Assembly: GCA_001799485.1 (NCBI GenBank)
Contig: MGTO01000065.1
Span: 220-64,219 of the forward strand
Direction of reading: 5' to 3'
Source of the DNA: Desulfuromonadales bacterium GWC2_61_20
GTDB lineage: Bacteria; Desulfobacterota; Desulfuromonadia; Desulfuromonadales; UBA2197
Length of the DNA stretch: 64,000 bases
Part shown: piece after piece, positions 19,805-44,182 of the stretch
How positions within the stretch are numbered: position 1 is the stretch's first letter
Layout of the letters: every line of letters starts with the position of its first letter
Position numbers and translations under genes: made by a program
Notes under the pieces: generated by a model
Told to the model about the DNA's origin: nothing
The model's input: the letters and a program-made list of their open reading frames with translations, nothing else
Databases searched by the model: none

Positions 19805-19807
19805 CGG

Positions 19808-20128: not shown

Positions 20129-20233
20129 GATCTGGGCTCCAAAAACCCTGCGGGGGATTTGCATCTGATTTGAGCCAGTCATGCTAGTCATTACCCGCGA
20201 AGAACTCAAGAAAAACCTGCGCCCCAGATAAAT

Positions 20234-20285
20234 GCCGTTCAAACGCCCCAGCCCGCGCATGCGCGGGCTGGGGCGTTTGAACGGC
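20234..20285. repeat. Perfect 52-nt palindrome (26-bp arms)
   Basis: GCCGTTCAAACGCCCCAGCCCGCGCA|TGCGCGGGCTGGGGCGTTTGAACGGC. Yields the same peptide PFKRPSPRMRGLGRLNG in track ORFs on both strands. Lies 3' of the Wzc-like gene. Confidence 0.9.
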
Positions 20286-23423: not shown

Positions 23424-23488
23424 GATTGCGCCCTTTCTGTTCCGGCCGATTCCCGGAACGCCGAGCAAACGGGGCTAAGGACTTGCGA

Positions 23489-24838: not shown

Positions 24839-24916
24839 CAGACCCGTCCACTTACTTTCAAGGGCAACTGTAGCGGCATGAGACAGCGGCTGTCCCGCGC
24901 CCACCCGCTCACGAAT

Positions 24917-26899
24917 TCAAATCGTCGCCCGGGCAACGTCGCCCTTGGCTCGAGCCGGGGCCGCGGGCAGGGGCGGTGCCGGCTTTGTCCTGACGCTCTG
25001 CGGCAGCGTAATTTTTACCTCAACCGGACTTGCGTGGGACACGCGGTATTCCGGCACGATTTCCCGCAACTTGGCGATCAGCAATGCACTGTCCCTGATC
25101 TGCGAGGTCTGGGCCATGTTCAGGAACCACTGTTCAGAAACGTTCTCATCAATCGGTCTGGACTTGGCCACAAAAATTTTGTCGTGGGCCGTCTCTTGTA
25201 TGTCCTCCCCGGCTAGGAGCAACTCCTCGTAAAGCTTCTCGCCGGGGCGCAAACCGGAAAAGACGATATCGATATCTTTATAGGGACGCAGACCTGAGAG
25301 ACGGATCAACTCTTCCGCCAGTTCGAGAATCTTGACCGGCTCACCCATGTCAAGGAGGAATATCTCGCCCTTGCGCCCCATGCTTCCCGCCTGCAGCACC
25401 AGTTGGGCCGCTTCGGGAATGGTCATGAAGAAACGCGTGACCTCGGGGTGGGTGACGGTGACCGGCCCGCCCTGTTCGATCTGGTCCCTGAAGACCGGGA
25501 TGACACTGCCATTACTCCCCAAAACATTGCCGAAGCGCACGGTAATGAAGTTGGTGGCGCTCCGCCTGGCCAGATATTGCACATAAATCTCGGCGGCACG
25601 CTTGCTGGCACCCATGACATTGGTTGGGTTGACGGCCTTGTCCGTCGAGACCATGACGAAACGACTGACCCCGGCGGCATGGGCCGCATTGGCGAGAATG
25701 CGGGTCCCCATCACATTGTTGCTGATCGCCTCATAGGGATGGGATTCAAGCATCGGCACATGCTTGTAGGCGGCGGCGTGAAACACCACCTCGGGCCGGT
25801 GCCGGGCGAAGATCTGGCGGATTTTCTGTTCGTCGCGGATGTCGCTCAGACTGGGAGTCAGGACAACGCCCGCGGAGCGCGCGTGCAGTTCTCGCTCGAC
25901 ATTGAAGAGGGGGGTTTCGGCACTATCGAGGAGGACGATGCCGGCGGGAGAGAAATTGAGCACCTGGCGGCAGATTTCGCTGCCGATGCTTCCCCCGGCC
26001 CCGGTGACGAGAATGCGCTTCCCCTTGAGGTAGCCCTGGATTTTGTCGACATCGAGCTCAACCGGCCTGCGGCCGAGCAAGTCTTCGAGCTGGACATCCC
26101 GCATATGTCGGACCGATACCGCCCCTTTGATGATCTCGCCGACGGTGGGGAGGATCTTTGATTCCACCCTCGCCCGCCGGCAGGCCGCGACGATGGTGCG
26201 TAATTCGCGATAGCCCACCGCTGGCTGCGCCACGATGACTAGGCCGATATGCCTGCTCCAGCAAGTTTGCACCAGGTCTTGAGGAGCCCCCAGAACCGGC
26301 ACCCCCTGGTAATTCTCCCCGAGGCGCTCCGGGTCACAGTCGAGAAAACCGATTACTGTCATGTTCAAGCTGGGAGTCTGGCGGATTTCCCGGGCGATCG
26401 TCTGTCCTGCCGCGCCGGCTCCAACAACCAGAACCCTCCCCCCCGCCTCCTTGCCTTGTTTGAACGTTCCGCTGACCGTTTCCATACCGATACGGGCCAG
26501 CACGCGCGCACCGCTGATGGTCAGAAAACAGAAGAGTCCATCCAGCACGAAGACGGCGGGGGGGATGTGCACGTATTGACGACCCGCCAGAACATACAAT
26601 CCCAAGAGCAGCAGCGAGGCGGACAGATTGGCGTTGACAATCCTGAGCAGGTCGGGCAGGGAAATGTACTTCCACCCACCGGAGAAGAGGCCCATCGTCC
26701 AGAAGATGGGAATCTTGATCAACAGCAGTAACGGCAGGATGGTCACGATTGACGCTTGGTAAAGCAGGGGGATGGTCCCGTCAAAGCGCAGGGAGAGCGC
26801 ACCGATATAACTACAGACCACTGCCGTCATGAGGAACAAAATGGTCATCAGCATTTTTGTCGGGTTTTTACATCGAAGGCCTTCAGCGAATTCTGCCAT
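24917..26899 (-). CDS. Membrane-anchored nucleotide-sugar 4,6-dehydratase/epimerase (CapD/WbpM/PglF family)
   Basis: ATG at 26897-26899. Four N-terminal TM helices. Two Rossmann motifs (VLVVGAGAAGQ and ILVTGAGGSIGSE). YKHVPMLE, SNNVMGTRILA, STDKAVNPTNVMGASKR. Confidence 0.85.
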   Translation of the reverse strand: MAEFAEGLRCKNPTKMLMTILFLMTAVVCSYIGALSLRFDGTIPLLYQASIVTILPLLLLIKIPIFWTMGLFSGGWKYISLPDLLRIVNANLSASLLLLGLYVLAGRQYVHIPPAVFVLDGLFCFLTISGARVLARIGMETVSGTFKQGKEAGGRVLVVGAGAAGQTIAREIRQTPSLNMTVIGFLDCDPERLGENYQGVPVLGAPQDLVQTCWSRHIGLVIVAQPAVGYRELRTIVAACRRARVESKILPTVGEIIKGAVSVRHMRDVQLEDLLGRRPVELDVDKIQGYLKGKRILVTGAGGSIGSEICRQVLNFSPAGIVLLDSAETPLFNVERELHARSAGVVLTPSLSDIRDEQKIRQIFARHRPEVVFHAAAYKHVPMLESHPYEAISNNVMGTRILANAAHAAGVSRFVMVSTDKAVNPTNVMGASKRAAEIYVQYLARRSATNFITVRFGNVLGSNGSVIPVFRDQIEQGGPVTVTHPEVTRFFMTIPEAAQLVLQAGSMGRKGEIFLLDMGEPVKILELAEELIRLSGLRPYKDIDIVFSGLRPGEKLYEELLLAGEDIQETAHDKIFVAKSRPIDENVSEQWFLNMAQTSQIRDSALLIAKLREIVPEYRVSHASPVEVKITLPQSVRTKPAPPLPAAPARAKGDVARATI

Positions 26900-27156
26900 A
26901 GTCGCCACCTTATCGATATTAGTTGTCAATAACGTTAGAACCGAATTGTGCCTCTTCAATAACCGGATAGGTGGAAACAAGGTCGAATAAGGTTATAAAG
27001 ATTATTAACCTGAAAGTTTCAGGGCTGAGCGCATTCCTGTCCCGCTCTTGCAATGACGCCCCGAGACGGCGCAGAGACTGCCCGGGGACGGCAGTCTCTG
27101 CGCCTGTTTCAGCCCGCATGCGGGGTATGCGCCCCGGGCAAGACGCGACGAGACGA

Positions 27157-28134
27157 TTACGGGGTCAAGCCCTCCACCATCGGATAGGCCGCCGCATCTA
27201 AGCTCGCCCATTCCTTGGCGGATCCGCAGTAGTTGGCGACCTGAGAGTAGCCCATCAACCGGGCAAGAAAATAGATGAAGGCACTTCGCTTGCCGACCGA
27301 GCTATAGACGATGACTTGTTTTTCGGGGGCCTTGGTGAAGCCGTGGGCTTCGAAGAGCAGTTTGAGGTCGTAGTAATTCAATACCGACTTGTCGGCGTTA
27401 TAGCACGCGGTGTAGGGCAGGTTGATCGCTCCGGGAATATGGCCGGGGCGGGTAGTTTCTGCGTCCGGCCCCGCGTACTCGGGTTCGGTACGTGCATCAA
27501 TCACTAGCACTGACCCATCTCCCGCATCGACTATCGCCTTGACCTGATTCTTGTCGACAGAGATGGCGGCAACGCCCCCTGCATCAAAAACTTCAAAGGC
27601 AACTGGAGTGATCGGGGGATGAATCGTGGCAGCGGTTTCCACCGGCCTGAGCTGGGCAAGCCACTGATCCCATCCGCCATTGAGAATGGAAACACTCGTA
27701 CAGCCCAGGTATTCGAGCAGCCAGAAGAGTCGGCCACCGGCACCTTGCGATGCCGTCGTGTTGTCGTAGATGACGATCTTGCTTGTCCGGGTGATGCCCA
27801 TGGCGCCCAGCTTCGCCTTCAGTTCGGCGATAGGCAGCAAAACGTTGTCCTGCCCTGTTTCGGTAAAAGCATTTGGTGGGGCGAAGATGGCGCCGGGGAT
27901 ATGTCCGGCGTTGTAATCGGCCAACGAATGCCGGGCATCGAGAATGATCACCTGCTCGGTGGCAAGAGTGGTGGCAGTCGACAGGAGACTGGCATTCGCA
28001 AAGAGGGTGGTTTCACCCGTTTGTGCCGGCGGCGGCGGGGCCTCGTCTACGCCGGAGCCACCACACGCGGTCAGCAGCGCGGCAAGGAGTGTCGTCAGCA
28101 GAATGGAGAGTCGCCGTACCCGATTTTTCCTCAT
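27157..28134 (-). CDS. Tandem rhodanese-homology-domain lipoprotein, catalytic Cys apparently replaced by Ser
   Basis: ATG at 28132-28134 after AGGAGG. Lipobox LLTTLLAALLTAC. Two rhodanese-like modules. The C-terminal active-site loop reads VIVYSSVGKRSAF, where YC--G-RS is expected. Confidence 0.65.
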   Translation of the reverse strand: MRKNRVRRLSILLTTLLAALLTACGGSGVDEAPPPPAQTGETTLFANASLLSTATTLATEQVIILDARHSLADYNAGHIPGAIFAPPNAFTETGQDNVLLPIAELKAKLGAMGITRTSKIVIYDNTTASQGAGGRLFWLLEYLGCTSVSILNGGWDQWLAQLRPVETAATIHPPITPVAFEVFDAGGVAAISVDKNQVKAIVDAGDGSVLVIDARTEPEYAGPDAETTRPGHIPGAINLPYTACYNADKSVLNYYDLKLLFEAHGFTKAPEKQVIVYSSVGKRSAFIYFLARLMGYSQVANYCGSAKEWASLDAAAYPMVEGLTP

Positions 28135-28306
28135 CACACATCCTCCTTTTGGTGAGACGCCTCCTCCGCGAACTCAAGTTTGGCGTGCGCGTTGCGCTCC
28201 CTGCTTTTTCAGCGGGGCCAATCGAGTCAGGATTTCGCCCTTCTCTGCCTCAGACAACGTGTTTGATTTTCAACGCTTGACCAAGTCCCGGAGCTGTCAT
28301 GGGCAA

Positions 28307-28969
28307 TTACTGTAATTGCCCATTGGTCGAAAGATTCGACTTATGCGTACTGGTGGCAGTGAACTTTGCCGCGATAATCGCCAGTTTCATCCGGTTGGGG
28401 ACACCGAACTTTTTAAACAGGTGATTGCAATGGGATTTGACCGTCTGTTCACTGATAAAAAGCTTTTCGGCGATGCTTTTATTGCTCTCGCCCGAGCAGA
28501 CATATTTGAGGATTTCTTTTTCTTTCTTGGTCAGACTGATTTTTTTCTGTTCTTGGTTGAAGTTCGTGAGAATGCTGCCGATGGTTTTGTGGTCGATCCA
28601 GAATTCACCGGATTGCAGCTTCAATATGGCCTTCTTCAACAGTTGCGAATCGCCCATTTTCGGCATGATCCCGGCGAGCCCCTTGCTGATCATCTCCTTG
28701 AGTTCGTCGTAAAGAAGAGGATTCTTGTCGTTGTCGCTAAGCAGCAGTATCTTGGGATGACCCGTGCCCAGAACAGCTTCGAGGAGGCTGCAGCATTCCG
28801 GGTGATCGGTGACGACGATATCGATGTTGTTCTTCCTCAATAGCGCCTTCATGTCGTCATCGTCGCAGGCGATGCCGACAATCTGATAGTTGACAGAATC
28901 GCTCAGGAGCCGGGCCAGCCCTTCGGCGAAAAGATAGGTGCGACCGAAAATCACCAGATTGACAGACAT
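28307..28969 (-). CDS. LuxR/NarL-type transcriptional regulator with atypical receiver-like domain
   Basis: ATG at 28967-28969 after GGAGG. C-terminal HTH LTKKEKEILKYVCSGESNKSIAEKLFISEQTVKSHCNHLFKKFGV. The N-terminal receiver-like fold lacks the acidic pair (LVIFGRTYL instead of hhhhDDH). Visibly lower GC than its neighbours. Confidence 0.8.
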   Translation of the reverse strand: MSVNLVIFGRTYLFAEGLARLLSDSVNYQIVGIACDDDDMKALLRKNNIDIVVTDHPECCSLLEAVLGTGHPKILLLSDNDKNPLLYDELKEMISKGLAGIMPKMGDSQLLKKAILKLQSGEFWIDHKTIGSILTNFNQEQKKISLTKKEKEILKYVCSGESNKSIAEKLFISEQTVKSHCNHLFKKFGVPNRMKLAIIAAKFTATSTHKSNLSTNGQLQ

Positions 28970-29064: not shown

Positions 29065-30348
29065 TCAATGCAACTGTCGAATTAATTGAGGTTCTTTGGC
29101 GGCCCGGCGGAAAACTTTACCGACCGCTTCCGTCGTCTCGCGCATGTCGGCCTCGCCCGATGTCGGGTGGACCAGAAACATCAGACTGGTGCGACCCAAT
29201 GTCCTGGCCACGGGCAGATGGCTGTTCTGGCACAACATTCTGTTTGTAAAGGCTTTTTCACGACAAATCTCGCTGCAGCTGCCGCTGAGGCAAGGAATCC
29301 CCTCGGCCACAATGGCCTCGATGATCTGCTCCCGGGTCCAGCCGTCCCTGAGGAGTTCCGGACGAATGAAGGTGTAGTACTTGTAGTAGGAATGTCCTGC
29401 TTCGAAGGGGGGCTCGGTCACCCGAAGGGCGGGTATGGTCTTGAAACCTTCGGTCAGGATGGCGGCGTTGCGTCGGCGGCAGGCGATCCAGCCGGAGAGA
29501 CGGGGGAGAGTGGCCCGGCCGATGGCGGCCTGCATTTCCGTCATCCGCCAGTTGGTGCCGAAGGATTCGTGGAGCCAGCGAAAGCCGGCGGGATGCTGGC
29601 GATGGTAAACCGCATCATAGCTCTTGCCGTGGTCCTTGTAGGCCCAGGCCCGCTCCCAGATGCCCCGGTCATTGGTTGTCAGCATCCCCCCCTCCCCGCC
29701 GGTCGTCATGATCTTGTCCTGGCAAAAAGAGAAGGCGGCGACATCGCCCAGCCCCCCGACTTGCCGCCCCCGGTAGCTAGCGCCATGGGCCTGGGCGCAG
29801 TCCTCGATCAGTTTCAGCCCCCGCTCGTGGGCCAGAGCGAGCAACCCTTCCATGTCGCAAGGCCAGCCCGCCAGATGCACGGCGATAATGGCCCGGGTCC
29901 GGGGTGAGAGGACCTTGCGCACGGTGGCGGCGGTAAGGTTCTGACTCTCCGGATCGACGTCGGCGAGAACCGGTATCGCGCCCCGCATGACCACGGCGCT
30001 GGCCGAAGCGATGAAGGTGCGGCTGGTGGTGACGACCTCGTCGCCCGGGCCGATGCCGAGAGCGTAGAGAGCCAGTTCCAGGGCGACGGTGCCGTTGGCC
30101 ACGGCCACCGCATAGCGACAGCCGCAGAGTTCGGCGAACTCCTGCTCGAACCGTCGCCCCTCTTCGCCGGTCCAGTAATTGACTTTCCCGGAGTGCAGCA
30201 CCGCAGCCACGGCAGCGATCTCCTCGGCCTCGAAATGCGGCCACGGCGGCCACGGCGCCGTGCGTGTGGGTGATGATTGGCCCGGTGCCTCGCGAAGGGG
30301 GAGCCGAGGCCGGGCATATTCAGACCGTTGACCGGGCAGTAGCGACAT
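29065..30348 (-). CDS. DegT/DnrJ/EryC1/StrS-family PLP-dependent sugar aminotransferase
   Basis: ATG at 30346-30348. FEQEFAELCGCRYAVAVANGTVALELAL, VTTSRTFIASA, FSFCQDKIMTTGGEGGMLTT (the family's Lys-containing PLP site). Confidence 0.85.
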   Translation of the reverse strand: MSLLPGQRSEYARPRLPLREAPGQSSPTRTAPWPPWPHFEAEEIAAVAAVLHSGKVNYWTGEEGRRFEQEFAELCGCRYAVAVANGTVALELALYALGIGPGDEVVTTSRTFIASASAVVMRGAIPVLADVDPESQNLTAATVRKVLSPRTRAIIAVHLAGWPCDMEGLLALAHERGLKLIEDCAQAHGASYRGRQVGGLGDVAAFSFCQDKIMTTGGEGGMLTTNDRGIWERAWAYKDHGKSYDAVYHRQHPAGFRWLHESFGTNWRMTEMQAAIGRATLPRLSGWIACRRRNAAILTEGFKTIPALRVTEPPFEAGHSYYKYYTFIRPELLRDGWTREQIIEAIVAEGIPCLSGSCSEICREKAFTNRMLCQNSHLPVARTLGRTSLMFLVHPTSGEADMRETTEAVGKVFRRAAKEPQLIRQLH

Positions 30349-30394
30349 CTCTGGATCCTCCTGTTTTCACGGCGTGGCCCCAACTAATTGCGGC

Positions 30395-31270
30395 TCAGGG
30401 CCGACTGACCCAACTCACCACCATACTTCCCTTACCCATTACCCGTGCACCCTGCCAGAGGAAGACATACGCCGGATTGCGCCGGGAACGCATGTTGTTC
30501 GAGGTCACATACTCCGGATCAACGGGGGTGGTGGTTTTGCCGGCGAGGCATTTGAACCCGGCCCGATGGAGAAGACGGTTCAACGTTTGCGGGGTGAAAC
30601 CGTGCAGGTGATGCGGCGGGGGAACGGTCGCCACCCGGTCGCGGACGCCGCCCAGCAGGAGGCGCATTTTCGTCGGGAGACCGTCTTCATTGGGGGTGAC
30701 AAAGAGGGCAACGCCGCCGGGGGCGAGGAGACGCCGGATCATGCGCAGATTGTCATAGGGGTCGGGGAGGTGTTCGATCACATCGCGCAAGCGAATGAAG
30801 TGGAATGCTCCTTCCGGCAGACCACTTTGCAGCAGGGGGACACAGCGCAGGTCGACCTGCAACTGTTGCCGCCCCGCCGCGATCAGTTCCGGATCGATAT
30901 CGATACCCGTGGCCTGCCAGCCGAGATCGGTGGCGGCACGCACTGAGGCCCCGGAGCCACAACCGACTTCGAGATAGCGTGGGGTTTGCAGGGTCTGCCC
31001 GGTCAGACGGGTAATTTCCCGCAGGTGCCCGAGGAGTTGCTGGGTTTCATGTCGCAGGATCTCCGGCGTAATGGTCTGATGCATATACTGGGTGTATTGA
31101 AAATCCTTGGAAACCTGCGAAAACTCCAGGGTCGGCTCAAAAAACGGCGCCGGATTGACGTAGATCACTTCGCATCGGGCGCATTTGCCGATGGACCACT
31201 CACCGACCGACGAGAGCTTGATGTAGTCGTCGGCACCACAGACATTGCAGGAAATCGGTTGTTTGATCAT
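30395..31270 (-). CDS. Class I SAM-dependent methyltransferase with N-terminal Cys4 zinc-ribbon
   Basis: Internal ATG at 31268-31270 (ATGA overlap with upstream stop). CNVCG...CARCE ribbon. SAM motif YLEVGCGSGAS. Motif II/III LRDVIEHLPDP...LLAPGGVALFVTPN. Confidence 0.8.
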   Translation of the reverse strand: MIKQPISCNVCGADDYIKLSSVGEWSIGKCARCEVIYVNPAPFFEPTLEFSQVSKDFQYTQYMHQTITPEILRHETQQLLGHLREITRLTGQTLQTPRYLEVGCGSGASVRAATDLGWQATGIDIDPELIAAGRQQLQVDLRCVPLLQSGLPEGAFHFIRLRDVIEHLPDPYDNLRMIRRLLAPGGVALFVTPNEDGLPTKMRLLLGGVRDRVATVPPPHHLHGFTPQTLNRLLHRAGFKCLAGKTTTPVDPEYVTSNNMRSRRNPAYVFLWQGARVMGKGSMVVSWVSRP

Positions 31271-32511
31271 GACGTCGCTCCTTTTGCACTCTTGTAGTTG
31301 AGGTTGGCCGACCGGCGTTGCCAGGGTTGTCGCCAGCGGGCGAGAAGGGATCCGCAGGCGCTGGCGAAACCCTGCCGGAGTAGATGGGCGATCCGCCGCA
31401 GGAAGGGCCGGAGGTCGTGCCAATCGAGAATGGCAAAGACATGGGGGTGCAGGTAGGGGCGGAGATACGCACCCACGGTATAACGTTCCCGGGTCAGATA
31501 GATGGCGCTGTAGCCAAGATCGCGACTGAGATCGATCCAGTAGACCCCCTTGCGGTAATCGGAGGCGACGGGGAGTTCTCCCGCGACCAGATGGCGATAG
31601 TGCAGCCAGGGGAAGTTGGTCCCGCAGCGGACGGCGAGGAGGGTGGAGAGATTGTGACGCGCGTTGACCTCCATGAGCTTGTAGACGCCGCTGCGCGCAT
31701 CCTTCTTGAACTCGGTACAGGCGTAGCCGGAAAAACCGATGGCGTGCAGGATGGCGCGCCCGGGCTCAAGGACTTCGGGAATCTCCCGACTGAGAACGAC
31801 CCGGGGCGAACCAAACCACGGGGGCGCATTGCGCACGTGAGCGGCGGTGAACTCGGCGACGGCAACACCGTTCCAGGCATAGGCGTTGTAATTGACCACC
31901 TGGCTATCGTCACCCGGGATGAGTTCCTGGAGCATGATCTCCAGTCCTGCTTCCGCGGCGCGTTCGCAGACGTCGAGGAGTTGTGCGGGCGTATCGACCC
32001 GAAACATCTTGCGCTGAAACCGTTCATAAAAGAGATGGCTCTGGCACGGTTTGACCAGACAGGGGAATTCGCCCGTGCCGGCGTAACTTTCGATCTCGTC
32101 CCAGGAGTTGGGGACCAGAGTGCGCGGGGCCGCCACGCCGCTGGACTCGGCCAGGGCGTAAGTCAGCTTCTTGTCGATGCAGCGCCGGGTGACCGCCCAG
32201 TCCGGGCAGGCGACGATGAAGTGCTCTTCGAGCACGGCTTTGTACTGCGAAGCCACGGTCAGGGACTCGTCGGAAGTCGGGAAGATCACCCCTCCGGCAA
32301 ACCGCGCCGCGCTGCCGAGGAGCAGCCCGATAAATTCCTCCGTGTGCTTTTCCGGATGGGGGGCGCGGAGAGCGACGGTCACATGGCGCGAGCGATGGGC
32401 CATGTCGCGCTCGTCGTAATGCACCACCACGATCGGCACCCCCATGGTCCCGAGGGCACGGGCCACACCCAGCGCCATCGTATGTCCGGACAGTATGATT
32501 GCGGGTCGCAT
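31267..32511 (-). CDS. ATP-grasp family carboxylate-amine ligase (COG3919-like)
   Basis: ATG at 32509-32511 after AAGGAG. N-terminus AIILSGHTMALGVARALGTMGVPIVVV, CLVKPCQSHLF, IMLQELIPGDD, ACTEFKKDARSGVYKLMEVNAR fit the ATP-grasp fold. Confidence 0.7.
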   Translation of the reverse strand: MRPAIILSGHTMALGVARALGTMGVPIVVVHYDERDMAHRSRHVTVALRAPHPEKHTEEFIGLLLGSAARFAGGVIFPTSDESLTVASQYKAVLEEHFIVACPDWAVTRRCIDKKLTYALAESSGVAAPRTLVPNSWDEIESYAGTGEFPCLVKPCQSHLFYERFQRKMFRVDTPAQLLDVCERAAEAGLEIMLQELIPGDDSQVVNYNAYAWNGVAVAEFTAAHVRNAPPWFGSPRVVLSREIPEVLEPGRAILHAIGFSGYACTEFKKDARSGVYKLMEVNARHNLSTLLAVRCGTNFPWLHYRHLVAGELPVASDYRKGVYWIDLSRDLGYSAIYLTRERYTVGAYLRPYLHPHVFAILDWHDLRPFLRRIAHLLRQGFASACGSLLARWRQPWQRRSANLNYKSAKGATS

Positions 32512-32544
32512 CAGCTTGGCTCCTTGCCGGGTCGCCGGTGACGG

Positions 32545-33777
32545 TCAGGGACAGCGGTAGTACGCCTTGATCCCGTGTTTCCGGAAGTAGCTGAAGGCGC
32601 TTTGCATCCGCTTGCGAATGACCTCGGGCGACACCTTGTCCTGTATCTCGGAAGCCGGTGTCCCCTCCTTGTCGTGGTAGGGAAAAACCACCACGGAATT
32701 GAACTGGGCCTGGCGGACCATGTCGAGGGTGGCGGAAAATTCGCTCTCGGATTCCGAGGGGAAGCCGACAATCATCTGGGTCTCGAGATTCATCTGCGGC
32801 TGCAGTTGTCTGGCCTTGCGCAAAATTTTCTGGAGCTCGCCCGCCGTGTGCTCGCGCTGCATAAGCTCAAGAATCCGGTCGCTCCCCGACTGCACCGGGC
32901 AGAGCATGCTCTTGACCAGCCGCGTGAAGGGCTGTTCAAGAAGTTCTCGCTCGTACTTGATGAGAAATTTCGGGTGAATTTCCTTGATGTGAAAACTGAT
33001 GTCGGTGAGCTTTTCCCCTTTCCTGTCCCCATCGTCGAGGGATAGCCGCAACGCCCGCAGCAGGTCCGGGAGGTTTCCGCCGTTATCCAGGCCATAACAG
33101 CCAGGGTCGTCGCCGAGGATGCTGAAATCGCGATAGCCCGCCCGCAGTCCCCGGCGCAGTTCGGCGACAACGTCCGAAACCGGCTTGCTTTTCACCGGCC
33201 CGACGGAGCGGCGGATGGCGCAGTAGCTGCATTTGCCGTGACAGCCGCGACAGACAAAGAGAAACCAGCTCTCCTGCGGTTCGGAAAGCAGATCCTTCAG
33301 ACGATTCACCCCGGACTGGGCGGTTTCGGCGAAGAATTCGCGATTGAACAGCTCGCCGCTCTGGATTTTGCGTTTGAGGGACTTGACGATATTGAGATTT
33401 TTTCTGGTGACGAGGTTTTCTTCCGACATTTCGGCGTATTTGACGACGTCATGGTCGAAATAGCGGTCGATATGCTCGATTTCCCGCGGCGCGATTTTGT
33501 GAAAATCGGCAAACTCGCGATACCTGTCCGAAGCAATGTCCGGTAGACACCCGAAGACGACGATCTCCCGGCCGAACTTGCGAAAAAAACGCAAACGCTT
33601 GACCGAGTCATCTTCTTCCTTCTTCTTGAAAGCACAGGTGCTGACGAGGATCCGGTCGGCATCTTCCGGGTTTTCCACCAGGGCGTGGCCATTGGCCTGC
33701 AGGTATTTCTTGATCGTCTCGATATCCAACTGGCGCCGCTTGCATCCGGCTTCTTCGACATAGATTCGCGTTGTCAC
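32545..33777 (-). CDS. Radical SAM enzyme of the methylthiotransferase (MiaB/RimO/MtaB)-like family, no TRAM domain
   Basis: GTG start at 33775-33777 five nt after AAGGAGG (the track ORF extends spuriously to 34575). N-terminal MTTase-type cysteines AGC, STC, FGC. Radical SAM motif CHGKCSYC. 410 aa, ending directly after the radical SAM core. Confidence 0.75.
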   Translation of the reverse strand: MTTRIYVEEAGCKRRQLDIETIKKYLQANGHALVENPEDADRILVSTCAFKKKEEDDSVKRLRFFRKFGREIVVFGCLPDIASDRYREFADFHKIAPREIEHIDRYFDHDVVKYAEMSEENLVTRKNLNIVKSLKRKIQSGELFNREFFAETAQSGVNRLKDLLSEPQESWFLFVCRGCHGKCSYCAIRRSVGPVKSKPVSDVVAELRRGLRAGYRDFSILGDDPGCYGLDNGGNLPDLLRALRLSLDDGDRKGEKLTDISFHIKEIHPKFLIKYERELLEQPFTRLVKSMLCPVQSGSDRILELMQREHTAGELQKILRKARQLQPQMNLETQMIVGFPSESESEFSATLDMVRQAQFNSVVVFPYHDKEGTPASEIQDKVSPEVIRKRMQSAFSYFRKHGIKAYYRCP

Positions 33778-34652
33778 GAAAGCCTCCTTTTTTCGTTGCC
33801 GGTCTTTACCAGGCAGGCAATCCAGTGATTGGTGATGCTCCGCAGGAAGGAAAAAACCTTTTTTTTTCCCATGGCGAACAACGCGTCGCTGAACCGCATC
33901 GAGAAGGGCAGCGGGAGGAATTCGCGGCGCCACAGGGTCAACGGGCCAAAACTGACGTTGCAGCTTTCCACTTCCGTCAGGCCATGACGGCGGTACACCA
34001 TATCGATCGTGGCAGGGCGGTATCTTCTGATCATCTCGGCGCTGAACTTTTGGGTTCTTTGCGGGACCGCAACGATAGCGCAGGTCAATCTTCGCACTGC
34101 CCGCAACGGCATCCAGACCAGGTAATAATAGGGATCGCAAATCTTGCCGAGCATCAGCCAGTTGGGGAGGGCCATGATCACCACCCCTCCCGGCTTGGCG
34201 ACGCGGGAGATTTCCGCGACGGCCGGTTCGTCTTCCCGCAGATAGGAAAGGACCCCGACACAGCAAACGATATCGAAGCTTTGATCGCGGAAGGGGAGGC
34301 TTTCCACGTCGGCCTGGATCCAGGTGACGTTCTCGCCGACCTCGTTTCTGGCCTGGGTCAGATGGCGCCGATTGATATCGATCCCGGTCAGGCGACAGCG
34401 GTGCGCGGCGAATGCCCCGAGAATGCCCCCGGGGCCGCAGCCACATTCGAGGATGCACGGATGATCCGCCGTCGCCGCATACTTGTTCAGCAGCTCGACC
34501 ACCAGTTCCCGCCTTTTGCGCATCTCGAAGCTGAAGAAACGGCGCGGCAGCGCCGGCGCGTAAACCTCCTTCCACCAGCCATAGTCGGCGTCGAAGAAAT
34601 CGATGATCCGGCGGTTGTCGGCCACCGGCTTGTTTGCGTCAGTGCCGAGCAT
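33774..34652 (-). CDS. Class I SAM-dependent methyltransferase
   Basis: Internal ATG at 34650-34652. SAM motif ILECGCGPGGILG. DIVCCVGVLSYL, AKPGGVVIMALPN. The upstream part of the track ORF (to 35552) overlaps the FemAB-like gene in another frame. Confidence 0.8.
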   Translation of the reverse strand: MLGTDANKPVADNRRIIDFFDADYGWWKEVYAPALPRRFFSFEMRKRRELVVELLNKYAATADHPCILECGCGPGGILGAFAAHRCRLTGIDINRRHLTQARNEVGENVTWIQADVESLPFRDQSFDIVCCVGVLSYLREDEPAVAEISRVAKPGGVVIMALPNWLMLGKICDPYYYLVWMPLRAVRRLTCAIVAVPQRTQKFSAEMIRRYRPATIDMVYRRHGLTEVESCNVSFGPLTLWRREFLPLPFSMRFSDALFAMGKKKVFSFLRSITNHWIACLVKTGNEKRRLS

Positions 34653-35754
34653 GATCGGGCCTTGTCTGCTCCACCGGGGGCGGCGGCATCCGTCGCGGGC
34701 AGGTGGTGCTGCGGTACAGGGGGAAAAACTCCTCATTGACCTGCCCCGTCGCGAGCTGCATCTGCCGGAAGCGACTATTGAGCCAGCCGTAGTGATCGTG
34801 GTCGACGACCAGACGGCAGGTATGAAATTCCGCGGTCGTCCGGGAAAATCCGGCTTTGAAGCGAAAGAGGGAATCGTCCCGCCCGCCGACCCCGCCGCCC
34901 AGATGAAAGATGCTCTGGCCGTTGTCCCTGGCCCAATTCCGCACGTGATCGAACATGAGCTTCGAGGGGGCCAGGGGCAGATATTTTTCCGCCGTGCCGC
35001 CAAGGTGGTACTGAACGATGCCATTGACCGCCGTGAAGAGACCGGCGGCCGCCACCTCGTTGTGCGGCGAAAGGATGGCGCAGAGATGGAGTCTGGCGCC
35101 GAGGGCGGCGCACAGATCACGAAAATAGGTTTCGGAAAAGTGGTAGAAGGATTCGGCGTGCAGACGCTCCATGGTCGCCTCGTAGACGGCGACAAAGGCC
35201 GGCCAGTCCTCGTGGTGGTCGAGCCTGGCCTGAAATCCCTTTTGGCGCAGCGCGGCGATTCCCCGTCGATGGTTTTCGCGAGTGGAACGCCAGAGACTCT
35301 GGCGATCGTCGTTGAGGTCGATCCAGACCGTCTGGCCGTGGCGGACGACGGCGCCATGCTCGCAGAATTCGGCCAGAGGACTCGACAGCAGTGGATGGAA
35401 GCGCAGGAAAACCGAGATGATTTCCGCGTCCCGGCTGCAGCGCAAAAAGGCATGAAGCAGGCGACATCCCCGATGCGCTGTCGCCGTCGGGGAGAGCAGC
35501 GGCGAAGGATAGCCGTAGGGGCTGCTGGCGTCGCGCCAGGTCGATCGGCCACCGAGTCCGTCAGGAACGCGGCGCAACAGCAACGGGATCAGCAGGGCCT
35601 GCGACCCCTCCCGCGCCAGAAAAGCTGCTGCGGTTCCACCCTCGTGCCGCGCGGCGAATGCCACATATTCCGGCAAGTGATAAAAGTCATGTGGCATTTC
35701 GGCAAGGCACTCGGCCCAGCGCGGATCCGTGACCGTAATAAATTCGGCGTTCAT
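34639..35754 (-). CDS. FemAB-like / GNAT-fold (Acetyltransf_6) aminoacyl- or acyl-transferase
   Basis: ATG at 35752-35754 after GGAGGG (ATGA overlap with upstream stop). YHLPEYVAFAA, QYHLGGTAEKYLPLAPSKLMFDHVRNWARDNG, FHLGGGVGGRDDSLFRFKAGFS are typical of FemAB-related proteins of EPS loci. Confidence 0.7.
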   Translation of the reverse strand: MNAEFITVTDPRWAECLAEMPHDFYHLPEYVAFAARHEGGTAAAFLAREGSQALLIPLLLRRVPDGLGGRSTWRDASSPYGYPSPLLSPTATAHRGCRLLHAFLRCSRDAEIISVFLRFHPLLSSPLAEFCEHGAVVRHGQTVWIDLNDDRQSLWRSTRENHRRGIAALRQKGFQARLDHHEDWPAFVAVYEATMERLHAESFYHFSETYFRDLCAALGARLHLCAILSPHNEVAAAGLFTAVNGIVQYHLGGTAEKYLPLAPSKLMFDHVRNWARDNGQSIFHLGGGVGGRDDSLFRFKAGFSRTTAEFHTCRLVVDHDHYGWLNSRFRQMQLATGQVNEEFFPLYRSTTCPRRMPPPPVEQTRPDHARH

Positions 35755-36413
35755 CGCGTCCCTCCTAGACCGGCATTGGTCTGCAACGCGTCCCCGGAGT
35801 GGATGTTTTTATGCATCCGGGCGTAGCGCTCTTGATCGAGGTCGGTTTCCACCTCGTCGGGGTTGGCGGCGGCCCCCTGCCGGGACAGGACGGCGCGAAC
35901 GGTCAGGAGCAGAATCTTCAGGTCGAGAATGATGGATTGGTGTTCGACGTACCAGACATCGAGGGCGAGACGCGCGTTCCAGGGGAGAAAGTTGCGGCCA
36001 TGCACTTGCGCCCAGCCGGTGATGCCGGGGCGCACGTCGTGCCGCCGCCGCTCCCGTGCGGTGTAATACGGCAGGTAGCGCATCAGCAGCGGCCGGGGGC
36101 CGACCAGACTCATCTCTCCCTTGAGCACATTGAACAGTTCCGGTAGTTCATCCAGGCTGGATTGACGCAAAAAAGCGCCGAACGGAGTCAGGCGGGCGCC
36201 GTCGGGCAAAAGATAGCCGGCGGCATCACGCGCGTCCGTCATGGTGCGGAACTTGAGGATCGCGAAGGGGCGCCCATGCAGGCCCGGTCGCTGCTGGCGA
36301 AAGAGGACTCCCCGGCCCAGCTGGTTGCGAATCAGCCAGGCCAAAGCCGTCAGCAGTGGTGCCAACAGGAACAGCAGCAGGACACTGACGATCAAGTCAA
36401 ACAGTCGTTTCAT
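35751..36413 (-). CDS. Initiating polyprenyl-phosphate sugar-phosphate transferase (small PglC/WbaP C-terminal type)
   Basis: Internal ATG at 36411-36413. MKRLFDLIVSVLLLFLLAPLL, RPFAILKFRTM, SLDELPELFNVLKGEMSLVGPRP, PGITGWAQV. Confidence 0.9.
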   Translation of the reverse strand: MKRLFDLIVSVLLLFLLAPLLTALAWLIRNQLGRGVLFRQQRPGLHGRPFAILKFRTMTDARDAAGYLLPDGARLTPFGAFLRQSSLDELPELFNVLKGEMSLVGPRPLLMRYLPYYTARERRRHDVRPGITGWAQVHGRNFLPWNARLALDVWYVEHQSIILDLKILLLTVRAVLSRQGAAANPDEVETDLDQERYARMHKNIHSGDALQTNAGLGGTR

Positions 36414-37530
36414 GGAGGAGTCCCAGTGATTGAAGAATGCTGCGGTTGACCTCGCGTACATCGAACTTTGCCTCGGCCAGGCGGCGGCTGGCATTGCCCA
36501 TGGTGGCGACAGACGCCGGATCGTGAATGAAACGTTCCATGGACGCGGCCAGTTGCACGGGATCGTGAACCGGAACCAGATAACCGTTCTTGCCGGGCTG
36601 GACGGTTTCGCGGCAGCCGGGGGTGTCCGTGGTAACGATCGGACGCCCCATGGCCATCGCTTCGAGGATCGAACGCGGGATCCCTTCGCCGTAATGGGAC
36701 GGCAGCACATAGACGGAAGCGGCGGCAATCGCCGGGCGGACATCGCCAATCGTGCCGAGATAATCAATCCAACCCTGGCTGACCCAGTGGTCAATCTCGG
36801 CGACCGGTACACCGCGGCTGCTCTTTTCAAGCCCGCCGACAAGATAGAATTTAGCCTGGGGATAACGTGATTTGAGTTGCCTGGCCGCCTCGGCGTAGTA
36901 GCAGATTCCTTTGGCACGCAGCAGCCTGGCAATGAGCAAAAAGGAGGCATTGGCGGGCAAGGGAGCAGGCACATAGTAATCTAGATCGACGCCGGAGCCG
37001 TTGATCAGGGTCGGATGATTCGAGGTCGTAACGATGCCATAGTCGATAAAGAGACGCAGGTCGTCCGGATTCTGAAAAAAGACGACCCGATTCGAACGGA
37101 GTCCGAGCCGGTAGAGCGATTTGGCCAATTGACAGGTCAGGCGCTGCCATGGCGTTGCCGTGCTGAAACTGCTGCCGCGTCCGGTAATCATTGAACTGAT
37201 GGTGCCGACACGAGCCAATGTCGCGCCGAGAGATCCATAGATAATCGGCTTGATGGTGTAGCTGAGAACGACATCGGGACGCTGGCGCTGGAAAAGGCGG
37301 GTCAGGGACCAGAGACTGTAGAGGTCCTGCAAGGGGTTGAGACCGGTTCGGTTGAGGGGCAGTCCCTGGAAGCGGACACCGAGCCGCAGCAAATCGTTGC
37401 GGAGAGCAGTCGACCCATTGGGTGCGCAGGCCACAACTTCATGACCCATTTGGGCCATATCCTCGAGAAGGCGCCCGCGAAAACCGATCAGAGATTCCGC
37501 CAGACTGCCGATTAGCATGACTCTAGCCAT
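36397..37530 (-). CDS. Glycosyltransferase family 4 (GT-B)
   Basis: ATG at 37528-37530. C-terminal LPSHYGEGIPRSILEAMAMGRPIVTTDTPGCRETV matches the GT4 E-x7-E region. Confidence 0.85.
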   Translation of the reverse strand: MARVMLIGSLAESLIGFRGRLLEDMAQMGHEVVACAPNGSTALRNDLLRLGVRFQGLPLNRTGLNPLQDLYSLWSLTRLFQRQRPDVVLSYTIKPIIYGSLGATLARVGTISSMITGRGSSFSTATPWQRLTCQLAKSLYRLGLRSNRVVFFQNPDDLRLFIDYGIVTTSNHPTLINGSGVDLDYYVPAPLPANASFLLIARLLRAKGICYYAEAARQLKSRYPQAKFYLVGGLEKSSRGVPVAEIDHWVSQGWIDYLGTIGDVRPAIAAASVYVLPSHYGEGIPRSILEAMAMGRPIVTTDTPGCRETVQPGKNGYLVPVHDPVQLAASMERFIHDPASVATMGNASRRLAEAKFDVREVNRSILQSLGLLHETTV

Positions 37531-37953
37531 ATGCAACTCGCCGCCAGGACAGGATGCCAGTTGGTGCACTCTAATGTTTAGTTGATTTTAAAGGACTAGT
37601 CCCGTGCGACAATTCAACGTCGGCATGAATCAAACAAAGAATAAGTTTGATGGGCCGCATGGACTAAAGTTTGAATTTCAGTCACGCCCCGAACCCGGCC
37701 GAAATACGCCGGCACAGGCAGGGTGCGCGTCGGCAGGAAGGGCATTGACGGGGGAATGTGGCCGATGGCAAAGTTGGCCGCAGTGAAGCTTCGGAGCCCT
37801 GGGCGAGAAGATAAGGAAGGCGTGCGGGGTGCGGCAGAAGTGGTTGGGCTTAACAGCTGCGGCAGCGGCAGCAACCACAACTTCGGTTTCCCCTCCCGCC
37901 ACTGGCGGCAGAAGGCCTCGGTTGGACAAACACCACCGCCGGTGAAAACAAAA

Positions 37954-39135
37954 TCAGTACGTTGCTGCAGCGGCCCCTGCTTTTTTCTTCCCCCCCATGG
38001 TGGCCGCAAATAGATCGAAATAGAGTTTTTCGTAACTGGCGACAACCGCCTCCAGGGAAAACTGTTCGCGTATGCGCTGACGCCCCCTTTCGCCGAGCAG
38101 CCGGCGCTGACCCTCGCCCATCAGGGCCAGGTGCTCCCAGGCGGCGGCCAGGGCCTGCGGATTTCGCGCCGGGACCACGACCCCGGTATCTCCAACCAGC
38201 AGCGCCGAGTCACCGACATCGGTGACCACACAGGGGACCTGACACGCCATCGCTTCGCCGACGGCATTGGGGAAACCTTCGCCGAGGGACGACGACGTGG
38301 CGATATCGACGGCCGAGAGCAGCCGCGGGATGTCGTCCCGGCGGCCGAGCAATGAGACCTTGTCGGCAAGCCCTGCCTGCTGAATCCACTCCACCAGTAT
38401 CCGGTTGTCCCACTGCACCTCATCCCCCGCCAGCAAGAAACGCAGACCAGGATATCGGGTGGCGAAGCGGGCCGCTGCCTGGATGAAGTTGCGGTGATCC
38501 TTTTGCGGGTGGAAACGCCCCACCAGTCCGATGACCAAGGTTTGCTCGGCGATCCCCAACTCGTCCCGGATCTCCCGGCGAGCCTGCGTCTGCCGGGAGA
38601 GTTTCCCCAGATCGAAGCCGTTGGGGATGACCTCGAACCGGCGCTCCGCATAACCGAACTGCACATGGCTCTGCCGGGCGGCCTCGGCACAACAGATAAT
38701 CTTGGCCGGTAGCCACCCGGACAGGTGGGCGCAGGCTTTGGCCGTCAGCAGGGTCGTCCGGCGATTGACCTGCGGTTCGAGGTTGCTGTGGCGGATGTTC
38801 CAGACCACCGGCGCCCGTCCGGCCAGGCGCGCAGCGATCCCGCCGAAGAGGTCGGCGTGATAGAGCCAGGTCTGGATGATATGGGGGGGATCGGCCCGCA
38901 GTTGCCGCACCAGACGCAGCAACGCCAGCGGTCCGTCGAGATGCGAGCGCACCCCGAGAACCCGTACCGGCACCTCGATCTCCGCGAACTGCCGGGCCAT
39001 CGGCACCTGATCGATGAGCGTGGTGACGACCGGCTCGAAGCGCTCCCGGTCGATGCGGCCGAGAAGACGCAGCAGCATGTTCTGCGCCCCTTGGGGAGCG
39101 AGGGAATTGATGATGCAGTGGAGCCGGATCCTCAT
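37954..39135 (-). CDS. Glycosyltransferase family 4 (GT-B)
   Basis: ATG at 39133-39135 (ATGA overlap with upstream stop). SSSLGEGFPNAVGEAMACQVPCVVTDVGDSALLV. Confidence 0.85.
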   Translation of the reverse strand: MRIRLHCIINSLAPQGAQNMLLRLLGRIDRERFEPVVTTLIDQVPMARQFAEIEVPVRVLGVRSHLDGPLALLRLVRQLRADPPHIIQTWLYHADLFGGIAARLAGRAPVVWNIRHSNLEPQVNRRTTLLTAKACAHLSGWLPAKIICCAEAARQSHVQFGYAERRFEVIPNGFDLGKLSRQTQARREIRDELGIAEQTLVIGLVGRFHPQKDHRNFIQAAARFATRYPGLRFLLAGDEVQWDNRILVEWIQQAGLADKVSLLGRRDDIPRLLSAVDIATSSSLGEGFPNAVGEAMACQVPCVVTDVGDSALLVGDTGVVVPARNPQALAAAWEHLALMGEGQRRLLGERGRQRIREQFSLEAVVASYEKLYFDLFAATMGGKKKAGAAAATY

Positions 39136-40337
39136 GTCTTGCCATCCCAGCACGGATGCGGCTTGGCCGTTTCAAGGATTGGGTGGGAGGAAGTCCATGC
39201 CGGGGGGAAAAAGAACCTTAGATAGTCCTGAAGTATCCGGTCAACATGGTAGTTTGCGGCCCGCTCCATCAACCGCATTTTGCTTGCAGCAGACGGCGGG
39301 CAGGTCAGGAGCGACACCATGGCCGCCGCCATCGCATCGGTATCGCCGATGGCGACAAGCGGTCCGAAGTTGCCCTGATCGAGGATTTCCGCCGGCCCGC
39401 TGGGACAGTCGGTGGCAATCACCGCAGTGCCGAGGGCCATCGCCTGGATCAGCACATTGGGCAGACCTTCATGGCGCGACGACAAGACCAGCAGCCGCGC
39501 CTGGCGCATGTAGGGGAAGGGGTTGGGGACGAAACCGGGCAGGGCGACGGCCTCGCCGAGGCCCAGTTCCGCCACCAGTTGTTGCAGAGCTTGCCGCTCC
39601 GGGCCTTCGCCAAGGATCATCAGACGGCACTCCAGTTGACGCCGGACGAGGGCGAAGGACTTGATCAGGGTATCAAAATCTTTCTGCGGCGCCAGCCGTC
39701 CGACCCCGAGAATCACGGGTAGTGCGCCGGAATGGAACCAGGGATGCTCGAGGGCAGCGTCGGCCATGGCGAGAAGGTCCCGGGTGACGACCGGGTTATT
39801 GATGACTTTCAGCAGTCGCGGATTGAGCCGCAACAGCGCCTGCAGATCGCTGGCAACCCCTGCGGAGACGGCGATGATGCCGTCAGCCCGAGGATAGATC
39901 AGCCGGGCCAGTGTAACGGCTTTCCAGGCCCCCCAGGGCGGGAGGGTCCGCAGCGTTTCCGACAGAGTCGCAGCTTCGCGCACGAAGACTCGTACCGGGG
40001 AGCGGGCCAGCATTCGGGCGAGAAGAACCACAATATTGGCCCGAAACGGCGTGGACAGGAAGACCTGCGGACGATGGGCGCGCAGGTAGCGGACCAGGCC
40101 GGGGAGACAGGTAAGCACGCGCCCCCTGGCGAGATCGATGATACGGACCTGCGCCGCAACCTGGGGCAGATACGGTCCAGTGGCGTTGGCGAGCAGGAGA
40201 TCGACCCGGAATCCGGCATCGAGCAGCCCGCCGGCGAGATTGAGCATGGCCCTCTCCGCGCCACCACCACCGAGACTCGGCATGAACAGGGCGATATGCT
40301 TGTCACCCGCCGAGGGGTCAGGCCCGCAGGCGCTCAC
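39132..40337 (-). CDS. Glycosyltransferase family 4 (GT-B)
   Basis: IALFMPSLGGGGAERAMLNLAGGL N-terminus. SSRHEGLPNVLIQAMALGTAVIATDCPSGPAEIL. Start uncertain: GTG 40335-40337 (20-nt overlap with upstream gene) or the ATG of MPSLGGGG. Confidence 0.75.
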   Translation of the reverse strand: MSACGPDPSAGDKHIALFMPSLGGGGAERAMLNLAGGLLDAGFRVDLLLANATGPYLPQVAAQVRIIDLARGRVLTCLPGLVRYLRAHRPQVFLSTPFRANIVVLLARMLARSPVRVFVREAATLSETLRTLPPWGAWKAVTLARLIYPRADGIIAVSAGVASDLQALLRLNPRLLKVINNPVVTRDLLAMADAALEHPWFHSGALPVILGVGRLAPQKDFDTLIKSFALVRRQLECRLMILGEGPERQALQQLVAELGLGEAVALPGFVPNPFPYMRQARLLVLSSRHEGLPNVLIQAMALGTAVIATDCPSGPAEILDQGNFGPLVAIGDTDAMAAAMVSLLTCPPSAASKMRLMERAANYHVDRILQDYLRFFFPPAWTSSHPILETAKPHPCWDGKT

Positions 40338-41808: not shown

Positions 41809-41834
41809 CGCAACCTCCTTTTTTCGCGTCCTCC

Positions 41835-44180: not shown

Positions 44181-44182
44181 GA

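Follow-up and report, generated by a model that had tools for sequence, protein, structure and literature searches.

We analysed a 64,000-nucleotide stretch of DNA from Desulfuromonadales bacterium GWC2_61_20 (contig MGTO01000065.1; hereafter the window, meaning the whole stretch) and focused on a cassette of six consecutive minus-strand genes, A to F, at 29065-35754, together with gene G immediately upstream. The layout was taken from the listing of open reading frames (ORFs) and from direct reading of the minus strand, and comprises the following genes (SAM, S-adenosylmethionine; PLP, pyridoxal phosphate):

29065-30348, minus strand: gene A, DegT-family PLP aminotransferase, 427 aa
30395-31270, minus strand: gene B, class-I SAM methyltransferase MT1, 291 aa
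31267-32511, minus strand: gene C, ATP-grasp carboxylate-amine ligase, 414 aa
32545-33777, minus strand: gene D, methylthiotransferase-like radical-SAM protein, 410 aa, GTG start
33774-34652, minus strand: gene E, class-I SAM methyltransferase MT2, 292 aa
34639-35754, minus strand: gene F, FemABX-fold tandem-GNAT transferase, 371 aa
35751-36413, minus strand: gene G, small PglC-like monotopic phosphoglycosyl transferase (PGT; Pfam Bac_transf, E 4.8e-62)

The original prediction, made from the sequence alone, had described the six genes as translationally coupled through four overlaps, all of which are real. The stop of C and the start of B share ATGA at 31267-31270, the stop of E and the start of D share GTGA at 33774-33777 (not ATGA, as D starts with GTG), F and E overlap by 14 nt (34639-34652), and the stop of G and the start of F share ATGA at 35751-35754. 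However, only three of the five internal junctions overlap, with a 46-nt gap between A and B and a 33-nt gap between C and D. On its other side, G overlaps the upstream GT4 gene by 17 nt (36397-36413). Shine-Dalgarno sequences of the AGGAG type precede most of the starts, that of E being weak (AAGG). Stop/start overlaps are ordinary in compact operons and unremarkable alone. Conservation shows that the arrangement of the six genes is selected, beyond chance: another deltaproteobacterial metagenome-assembled genome (MAG; loci L005/L020 in our numbering) has counterparts of all six and of G, with 42-67% identity. Promoter- and terminator-like sites were no commoner in the region than in shuffled sequence by a consensus scan, a result that speaks neither for nor against a single transcript. 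Proteins 100% identical to C and F are filed at NCBI under the name Desulfuromonadales bacterium GWD2_61_12 (tags A2091_12685 and A2091_12700).

Judged by domain content, the cassette is the predicted sugar-tailoring section of a Wzx/Wzy-dependent exopolysaccharide (EPS) locus that spans about 20.4-45.7 kb on the minus strand, and a complete Wzx/Wzy/Wza/Wzc gene set surrounds it (Pfam, NCBIfam). We put the probability at roughly 0.55 that the cassette makes a methylated, radical-SAM-modified amino sugar with an amino-acid-derived N-acyl group, placed at the start of the repeat unit. The most likely product would be a bacillosamine-type initiating sugar bearing a 4-N-(aminoacyl/peptidyl) substituent, with methylation and further modification, possibly methylthiolation. 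An N-acylated, methylated and radical-SAM-modified amino sugar had been proposed originally, and it is consistent with everything we found, including the relatedness of A, the lack of a PglD-type gene and the structural matches of F; its chemistry is a prediction. The domain calls on which that proposal was built (DegT, two methyltransferases, ATP-grasp, methylthiotransferase-like radical SAM and FemAB-like) were all confirmed, with the caveat that D lacks a TRAM domain.

Gene A carries the DegT-family domain PF01041 (E 7e-95, 318.7 bits), and its residues 31-414 align with residues 8-399 of Pcryo_0638 (PDB 7l7x, E 1.8e-141), to which it is roughly 55-60% identical. Pcryo_0638 converts UDP-4-keto-6-deoxy-GlcNAc to UDP-2-acetamido-4-amino-2,4,6-trideoxy-D-glucose (PMC8040287). 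With this full-length similarity and a partner 4,6-dehydratase in the locus, A falls in the Pcryo_0638 type and is a predicted UDP-4-keto-6-deoxy-GlcNAc C4-aminotransferase making the bacillosamine precursor, for which the PglF-like dehydratase (24917-26980) is predicted to supply the 4-keto substrate. No Hexapep/PglD_N domain or PglD-type acetyltransferase was found among the scanned genes of the 20.4-45.7 kb locus, which departs in this step from the canonical diNAcBac pathway (PglF-PglE-PglD-PglC) and would therefore leave the C4 amine free for another acyl donor. Genes of the PglD or hexapeptide type do occur in two related loci (L059, L054). G is presumed to take the decorated UDP-sugar and so to start the repeat unit.

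The AlphaFold model of C (pLDDT 89.9) shows a confident ATP-grasp fold. Foldseek gave 443 PDB matches at E ≤ 0.001, the best 50 of which are all ATP-grasp enzymes, led by 2pn1 (CPS-like), the L-amino-acid ligase 3vot and biotin carboxylase/PurK. By sequence, C had no Pfam match above cut-off (ATPgrasp_Ter, 18.5 vs 29.1). Members of its family from different phyla share an unusually high 55-80% identity, and many homologues (58-66% identity) bear the JGI automatic name "D-aspartate ligase", an unconfirmed label. The methyltransferase B (Pfam Methyltransf_23/11, with an N-terminal CxxC...CxxC motif) has orthologues at 55-67% identity that come after the ATP-grasp gene in L005, L006, L057, L058 and L059, and a B-type MT1 adjoins a C-type ATP-grasp gene in all related loci holding the pair. 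Next to D-family genes, orthologues of E (Pfam Methyltransf_11/25) are encoded in L005, L006, L020 and L021; L058 also has one but no radical-SAM gene. For both methyltransferases, PDB sequence searches gave generic class-I matches only, with no pointer to substrate; the best match of E is the phosphatidylethanolamine N-methyltransferase 8ys9 (E 1.3e-14), itself generic. None of B, C, D, E and F passed a curated NCBIfam model.

Gene F matches both FemAB (PF02388, 39 bits, cut-off 24) and Acetyltransf_6 (PF13480, 40.6 bits, cut-off 22). Its family, large and uncharacterised, consists of proteins of about 350 aa encoded in polysaccharide loci. F does not reach the model for XrtA/PEP-CTERM-associated FemAB proteins (TIGR03019, 39.1 bits, cut-off 260.35). 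The top 11 Foldseek matches to its predicted structure (pLDDT 92.4) are Sba18/Sbb17, FemX and FemA (TMt 0.61-0.81), followed by MprF. These best structural matches are all aminoacyl-tRNA-dependent transferases, amino-sugar acylators among them, and the Sba18/Sbb17 structures that head the list were solved with bound streptothrisamine; CoA-dependent tandem GNATs match F less well (2wpw, TM ~0.46). The related Orf11 transfers glycine from Gly-tRNA onto streptothrisamine to give glycylthricin (PMC12945691). F shares the tandem-GNAT Fem fold of Orf11/Sba18/Sbb17 and FemX, although its sequence identity to them is only 12-16%, and on the strength of the modelled fold F is a predicted aminoacyl-tRNA-dependent aminoacyl transferase. 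A homologue of F, P0282 (585 aa, L054:8001-9758), is a fusion of a PglD_N/hexapeptide acetyltransferase to an F-like Fem domain, and its gene sits exactly between those for a small PGT and a DegT protein. Through this fusion, the F family is tied to chemistry at the C4 amine of sugars of the bacillosamine type.

Gene D has the UPF0004 N-terminal domain of methylthiotransferases (PF00919, 57.7 bits, cut-off 27) and a radical-SAM core with CxxxCxxC (PF04055, 69.2 bits). Its cysteines were followed in an alignment of 14 family members and in one with E. coli RimO and MiaB: all six are invariant, both the three of the auxiliary [4Fe-4S] cluster (C12, C48 and C77), which have aligned counterparts in the E. 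coli proteins, and the three of the CxxxCxxC motif (C179, C183 and C186). The closest PDB entries are RimO 4jc0 (E 1.6e-38) and MiaB 7mjz, but identity to the E. coli MiaB and RimO proteins is only 25%. The TRAM domain, a module recognising RNA or protein substrates, is missing from D, which has no Pfam match to it and, when aligned with E. coli RimO and MiaB, stops about 65-100 residues short of their C-termini. The family also has an insertion of its own, about 40 aa long, between the UPF0004 and radical-SAM domains. D scored below every curated cut-off: 231.4 vs 251 for the general methylthiotransferase model TIGR00089, 200.1 vs 314.7 for the nearest specific model (TIGR01578, archaeal/eukaryotic MtaB, e-MtaB), and 186.6 vs 357, 167 vs 357 and 164.3 vs 355 for RimO, MtaB and MiaB, respectively. 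The earlier description of D as methylthiotransferase-like thus holds for the cluster cysteines and not for the TRAM domain or the curated models. Because D fails these two tests of the MiaB/RimO family and keeps both cluster motifs, it should not be filed as MiaB, RimO or MtaB. D probably works like a methylthiotransferase, going by its conserved motifs; that it carries out methylthiolation specifically is a tentative assignment that we would not expect to hold.

These assignments can be arranged into a putative pathway. The PglF-like dehydratase would convert UDP-GlcNAc to UDP-4-keto-6-deoxy-GlcNAc, which A would transaminate to UDP-4-amino-4,6-dideoxy-GlcNAc. C would then join a free carboxylate, maybe that of an Asp or Glu side chain, to the C4 amine, as in Neisseria PglB2 and B. 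cereus Pyl, and B, its obligate partner, would methylate the acyl group. F would transfer an aminoacyl residue from aminoacyl-tRNA onto a free amine and E would add another methyl group, while D, with two [4Fe-4S] clusters, would perform radical chemistry on an unactivated side-chain C-H, RimO-type methylthiolation being the likeliest form of it. Finally, G would transfer the finished sugar-1-phosphate to undecaprenyl phosphate, so that this sugar becomes the residue with which the repeat unit begins.

Considering the broader family of D, a protein search returned 6218 matches at E ≤ 1e-10 among 8000 candidates, ordinary methylthiotransferases included. The best 120 of these 6218 are nearly all about 410 aa long, without TRAM and 40-100% identical to D; the few labelled MAGs among them are assigned to Bacteroidota, Thermodesulfobacteriota, Latescibacterota and a DPANN-labelled bin. 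D-family loci came from GTDB genomes (13) and JGI metagenomes (31), all of uncultured organisms. The family is thus known only from metagenome-derived or uncultured sequences, and it is conserved in glycan loci across phyla. Among 26 non-redundant D-family loci with at least 4 kb of flank, a homologous ATP-grasp gene was a neighbour in 14, a related methyltransferase gene in 17, a Fem-like gene in 9 and any of the three in 19. The plasmid collection held no cultured-organism homologue of the cassette with D and C as queries; D matched only genuine MiaB-type genes there (22-27% identity) and C only distant ATP-grasp genes (≤ ~30% identity). Two host contexts recur. In one, D-family genes accompany a PglF-like dehydratase, an A-type DegT protein and a small PGT (the window, L005/L020, L006 and L024); in the other, they accompany a GFO_IDH_MocA oxidoreductase, a hexapeptide acetyltransferase and a DegT protein, resembling WbpB/WbpD/WbpE (L009, L017, L019, L022 and L039).

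The C-B pair occurs with an A-type DegT protein (60-71% identity) and a small PGT even where no radical-SAM gene is present (L057, L058 and L059). The cassette, originally taken as one unit, is therefore a mosaic, with a core of A, B and C (plus G and the dehydratase) and a variable add-on of D, E and F. The add-on slot holds amino-acid-handling genes and is swappable. In L058 (6756-12123), the place of F-E-D beside the conserved C-B pair is taken by a methyltransferase of the E type, a PLP decarboxylase of the Orn/DAP/Arg type and a PylC-like ATP-grasp ligase. This replacement of the Fem-like and radical-SAM genes suggests that the slot is a hot-spot where the amino-acid side chain is diversified. 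In three further loci (L022 at 10001-20267, L030 and L032), the slot carries D-family genes and, after them, methyltransferase genes (L022 has three), a pair of ATP-grasp genes and one resembling phosphatidylserine decarboxylase.

Several side observations concern D-family loci. L022 also contains a B12-binding radical-SAM gene. A Bacteroidetes MAG (L004) carries tandem TRAM-less radical-SAM paralogues (148-1377 and 1580-2812; 49% and 52% identical to D) with a B-type methyltransferase gene after them; its 10.9-kb contig showed no ATP-grasp gene. A protein of about 310 aa without a Pfam match (L017:7673-8638, L019:6213-7133 and L021:6610-7578) is conserved across phyla at 51-59% identity. Its gene and a Fem-like gene always come as a pair next to D-family genes in loci of the WbpB/D/E-like kind, and the window has no homologue of it. 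L019 (JAADFO010000064.1) is labelled as a Nanobdellati/DPANN archaeon and encodes a bacterial-style Bac_transf PGT with DegT, Fem-like and ATP-grasp proteins that are 44-67% identical to bacterial counterparts; the case is probably one of binning error or horizontal transfer. A convergent gene for an Old-Yellow-Enzyme-type flavin oxidoreductase lies directly downstream of a D-family gene at L012:10985-12058, outside a recognisable glycan locus, and at L037:3977-5104, with a UDP-glucose dehydrogenase-family gene upstream. This setting is a recurrent second neighbourhood of the D family.

Parts of the proposed pathway have close precedents. Neisseria PglB2 (GATDH) carries an ATP-grasp domain in place of an acetyltransferase and attaches glyceroyl to the C4 amine (PMC11130364). 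Like the pgl/PglB2 systems, the window has a PglF/WbpM-type dehydratase, a C4 aminotransferase and a small PglC-like PGT, and its ATP-grasp gene lies, as with PglB2, in a locus without a PglD-type gene. It differs in that the aminotransferase is of the Pcryo_0638 rather than the PglE type, in that the ATP-grasp protein is separate and not fused to the PGT (the two are likened by domain type), in four more tailoring enzymes (two methyltransferases, the Fem-like protein and the radical-SAM protein), and in a product that would feed a Wzx/Wzy/Wza/Wzc exopolysaccharide instead of protein glycosylation. In B. cereus, Pat and Pyl, an aminotransferase and an ATP-grasp enzyme, acylate the C4 amine of a UDP-4-amino-6-deoxy-HexNAc to give UDP-yelosamine (UDP-FucNAc4N-2-oxoglutarate), and their genes, like those in the window, lie beside a small PGT gene, a likeness of gene content (PMC11626204). 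The donor in that system is 2-oxoglutarate, and genes for a methyltransferase, a Fem-like protein or a radical-SAM protein are not named in that description of the pathway. The locus for the C. difficile type B flagellin glycan (CDR20291_0244-0247) brings together FemAB-like, ATP-grasp and DegT-family (FdtB-like) genes for a terminal peptidylamido sugar (PMC5207246). It resembles the window at the domain level and differs in its O-linked flagellin glycan, which is not EPS, in an ornithine cyclodeaminase-like gene and a sulfonated peptide, and in that no radical-SAM gene is described for it. For D itself, the likeness to MiaB, RimO and MtaB lies in UPF0004 with its three cysteines, the radical-SAM CxxxCxxC and the closest structures, and the difference, beyond the missing TRAM, the insertion, the low identity and the sub-cut-off scores, lies in a context of polysaccharide tailoring and not translation.

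The decoration had been called unusual. This stands for the methylthiotransferase-like part, as full-text literature searches gave nothing on such an enzyme in polysaccharide pathways, nor on the whole module, and precedents only for the parts without radical SAM. It does not stand for the remainder, since peptidylamido and N-acyl amino sugars made by DegT and ATP-grasp proteins, with or without a Fem-like protein, are known (PglB2, Pyl and C. difficile). Only the radical-SAM part is thus without precedent, and the remaining cassette has clear ones.

Several points weigh against an N-acyl amino sugar made in this way. We infer every substrate, the order of the steps and the chemistry of D, and the tailoring enzymes could act on a lipid-linked oligosaccharide or on another residue instead of the UDP-sugar. 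The name "D-aspartate ligase" on C homologues is an automatic annotation. Given the sub-cut-off scores and the lack of TRAM, the chemistry of D may be other than methylthiolation, and its tight coupling to E is unexplained, as known methylthiotransferases need no separate methyltransferase. A minority of the D family (L010, L011, L012 and L027) has unrelated neighbourhoods in which no glycan locus can be recognised. Finally, where D-family genes have WbpB/WbpD/WbpE-like neighbours, the hexapeptide acetyltransferase could cap the amine, so the acceptor need not be a bacillosamine C4 amine. In an alternative explanation, the ATP-grasp enzyme, possibly with the AsnB-like protein of the locus, would act on a carboxylate of the glycan and amidate a uronic acid of the repeat unit with an amino acid or amine, after which the methyltransferases and D would tailor the amide-linked residue on the lipid-linked or polymerised glycan. 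Campylobacter capsules would offer a parallel in their amide-linked substituents on glucuronate. ATP-grasp enzymes activate carboxylates, which fits; homologues of D and C lie beside WbpB/WbpD/WbpE-like genes, typical of 2,3-diamino uronic-acid pathways; and a UDP-glucose dehydrogenase-family gene adjoins one D-family gene (L037), while the window locus itself encodes an AsnB-like adenylating enzyme. We nevertheless find this explanation distinctly improbable. A UDP-sugar 6-dehydrogenase was not found among the scanned genes of the window locus, the C-B pair tracks the A-type DegT protein and small PGT at 55-71% identity in otherwise different loci, and the C4 amine needs an acyl donor, as the cassette is without a PglD-type enzyme.

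The methylthiotransferase scaffold of D might serve other radical chemistry on the acyl or sugar moiety, such as sulfur insertion with no transfer of a methyl group (E being the S-methylase), C-methylation, epimerisation or cross-linking. The lack of TRAM, the family-specific insertion of about 40 aa, scores below TIGR00089 and all four specific methylthiotransferase cut-offs, and translational coupling to a separate methyltransferase that true methylthiotransferases do not need all point this way. Against it, the three auxiliary-cluster cysteines and CxxxCxxC are invariant across the family, every characterised member of the UPF0004 plus radical-SAM architecture is, to our knowledge, a methylthiotransferase, and an E-type methyltransferase also occurs without D (L058), so that E is no dedicated partner; we treat such chemistry as possible, if doubtful. 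Much less credible is a housekeeping role for D, as a methylthiotransferase of tRNA (MtaB/CDKAL1-like) or of a ribosomal protein whose gene just happens to be in the locus. JGI names its homologues MiaB or CDKAL1, its best specific model is TIGR01578 at 200 bits, and some family members lie outside glycan loci; however, 200 bits is far under the 314.7-bit cut-off, TRAM is absent, identity is 25% to E. coli MiaB/RimO and about 22-27% to the plasmid-collection matches (several annotated MiaB), D is translationally coupled in a sugar operon, and the synteny with ATP-grasp, methyltransferase and Fem-like genes extends to 19/26 loci in several phyla. A housekeeping MtaB or RimO was rejected on the missing TRAM, the sub-threshold scores and this conserved synteny. 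It is just as hard to believe that what the ATP-grasp, radical-SAM and methyltransferase enzymes produce is unrelated to the polysaccharide, be it a free small molecule or a modified, RiPP-like peptide. Such combinations are common in peptide natural-product clusters, and the D-family genes outside glycan loci would suit this idea, but the cassette leaves no space for a precursor-peptide gene (gaps of 46 and 33 nt, all other junctions overlapping) and is translationally coupled to the initiating transferase, on which two grounds a RiPP-like cluster was rejected. In addition, the cassette lies between a glycosyltransferase block and export genes, and DegT and PGT genes always accompany the C-B pair.

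The locus is of interest in several respects. In its modular arrangement, ATP-grasp, methyltransferase, DegT and small PGT genes are fixed and a swappable slot takes genes for Fem-like proteins, decarboxylases, extra ligases or radical-SAM enzymes. Environmental bacteria may generally use this arrangement, by the look of it, to diversify the reducing-end amino sugar of their surface polysaccharides. The locus also suggests functions for B, C, D, E and F, five protein families for which no curated annotation model is passed. As far as we know, tRNA and ribosomal protein S12 are the only substrates of characterised methylthiotransferases. A conserved TRAM-less clade in sugar-tailoring operons would, if true, extend methylthiotransferase chemistry to glycans or small molecules, and would offer a soluble, small-substrate system for the still-debated sulfur-donor mechanism. 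Taken to its end, and as a speculation that we think unlikely to prove right, the D family could be the first radical-SAM methylthiotransferase clade whose substrate is neither tRNA nor ribosomal protein. It would act on a nucleotide-sugar- or lipid-linked aminoacyl side chain, it would have arisen from an MtaB/CDKAL1-like ancestor by loss of TRAM, and many uncultured bacteria would display on their EPS a methylthio-bearing (thioether) peptidylamido sugar of a kind not seen before.

The genes that surround the cassette in the locus are listed below. From 36397 to 45700, ORF starts are maximal, so that true starts may lie further downstream, and gene calls for this upstream part were also taken from an identical contig (L001).

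20364-22613, minus strand: Wzc-type chain-length determinant/co-polymerase with tyrosine kinase (Pfam, NCBIfam)
22617-23468, minus strand: Wza-type exporter (Pfam, NCBIfam)
23489-24904, minus strand: EpsL-like outer-membrane beta-barrel (Pfam, NCBIfam)
24917-26980, minus strand: PglF/WbpM-type membrane-anchored UDP-GlcNAc 4,6-dehydratase (Polysacc_synt_2, E 2.2e-120, plus CoA_binding_3)
27157-28137, minus strand: two-domain rhodanese sulfurtransferase (Pfam Rhodanese x2, E 8.4e-32)
28307-28969, minus strand: LuxR/GerE-type regulator (Pfam GerE, E 7.4e-21)
36397-37569, 37954-39153, 39132-40496 and 41835-43010, minus strand: four GT4 glycosyltransferases (Pfam)
40318-41808, minus strand: AsnB-like adenylating enzyme, interrupting the GT4 block (Pfam, NCBIfam)
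43011-44414, minus strand: Wzy-like polymerase (Pfam)
44183-45700, minus strand: Wzx flippase (Pfam)

The likely true start of the PglF-like dehydratase, from the gene call on the identical contig, gives a protein of 660 aa (24917-26899). The LuxR-type regulator lies between the cassette and the dehydratase, and its position is kept in relatives (homologues in L005, L020 and L024). The rhodanese gene is located between this regulator and the dehydratase; its product resembles the NCBIfam 3-mercaptopyruvate sulfurtransferase below cut-off and weakly matches the model "rhoda_near_glyco". It could supply persulfide sulfur to D. A role as dedicated sulfur donor was dropped because no homologue is present in the closest syntenic relatives, L005/L020. 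The AsnB-like protein, which the original prediction had also mentioned, does exist, outside the coordinates of the cassette. Its alignment to TIGR01536 (asparagine synthase) begins only at about profile position 148, so it appears to lack most of the N-terminal glutaminase domain, and it may be an adenylating enzyme that depends on ammonia or is specialised in another way, and not a glutamine amidotransferase. Just past the locus, the plus strand encodes a GINT1_N-like protein (45887-46885), and two pectate-lyase-fold proteins follow at 46917-48206 and 48378-51170, the larger of which also has Ig-like and Calx-beta domains; these proteins (45887-51170) may be polysaccharide-processing or surface proteins.

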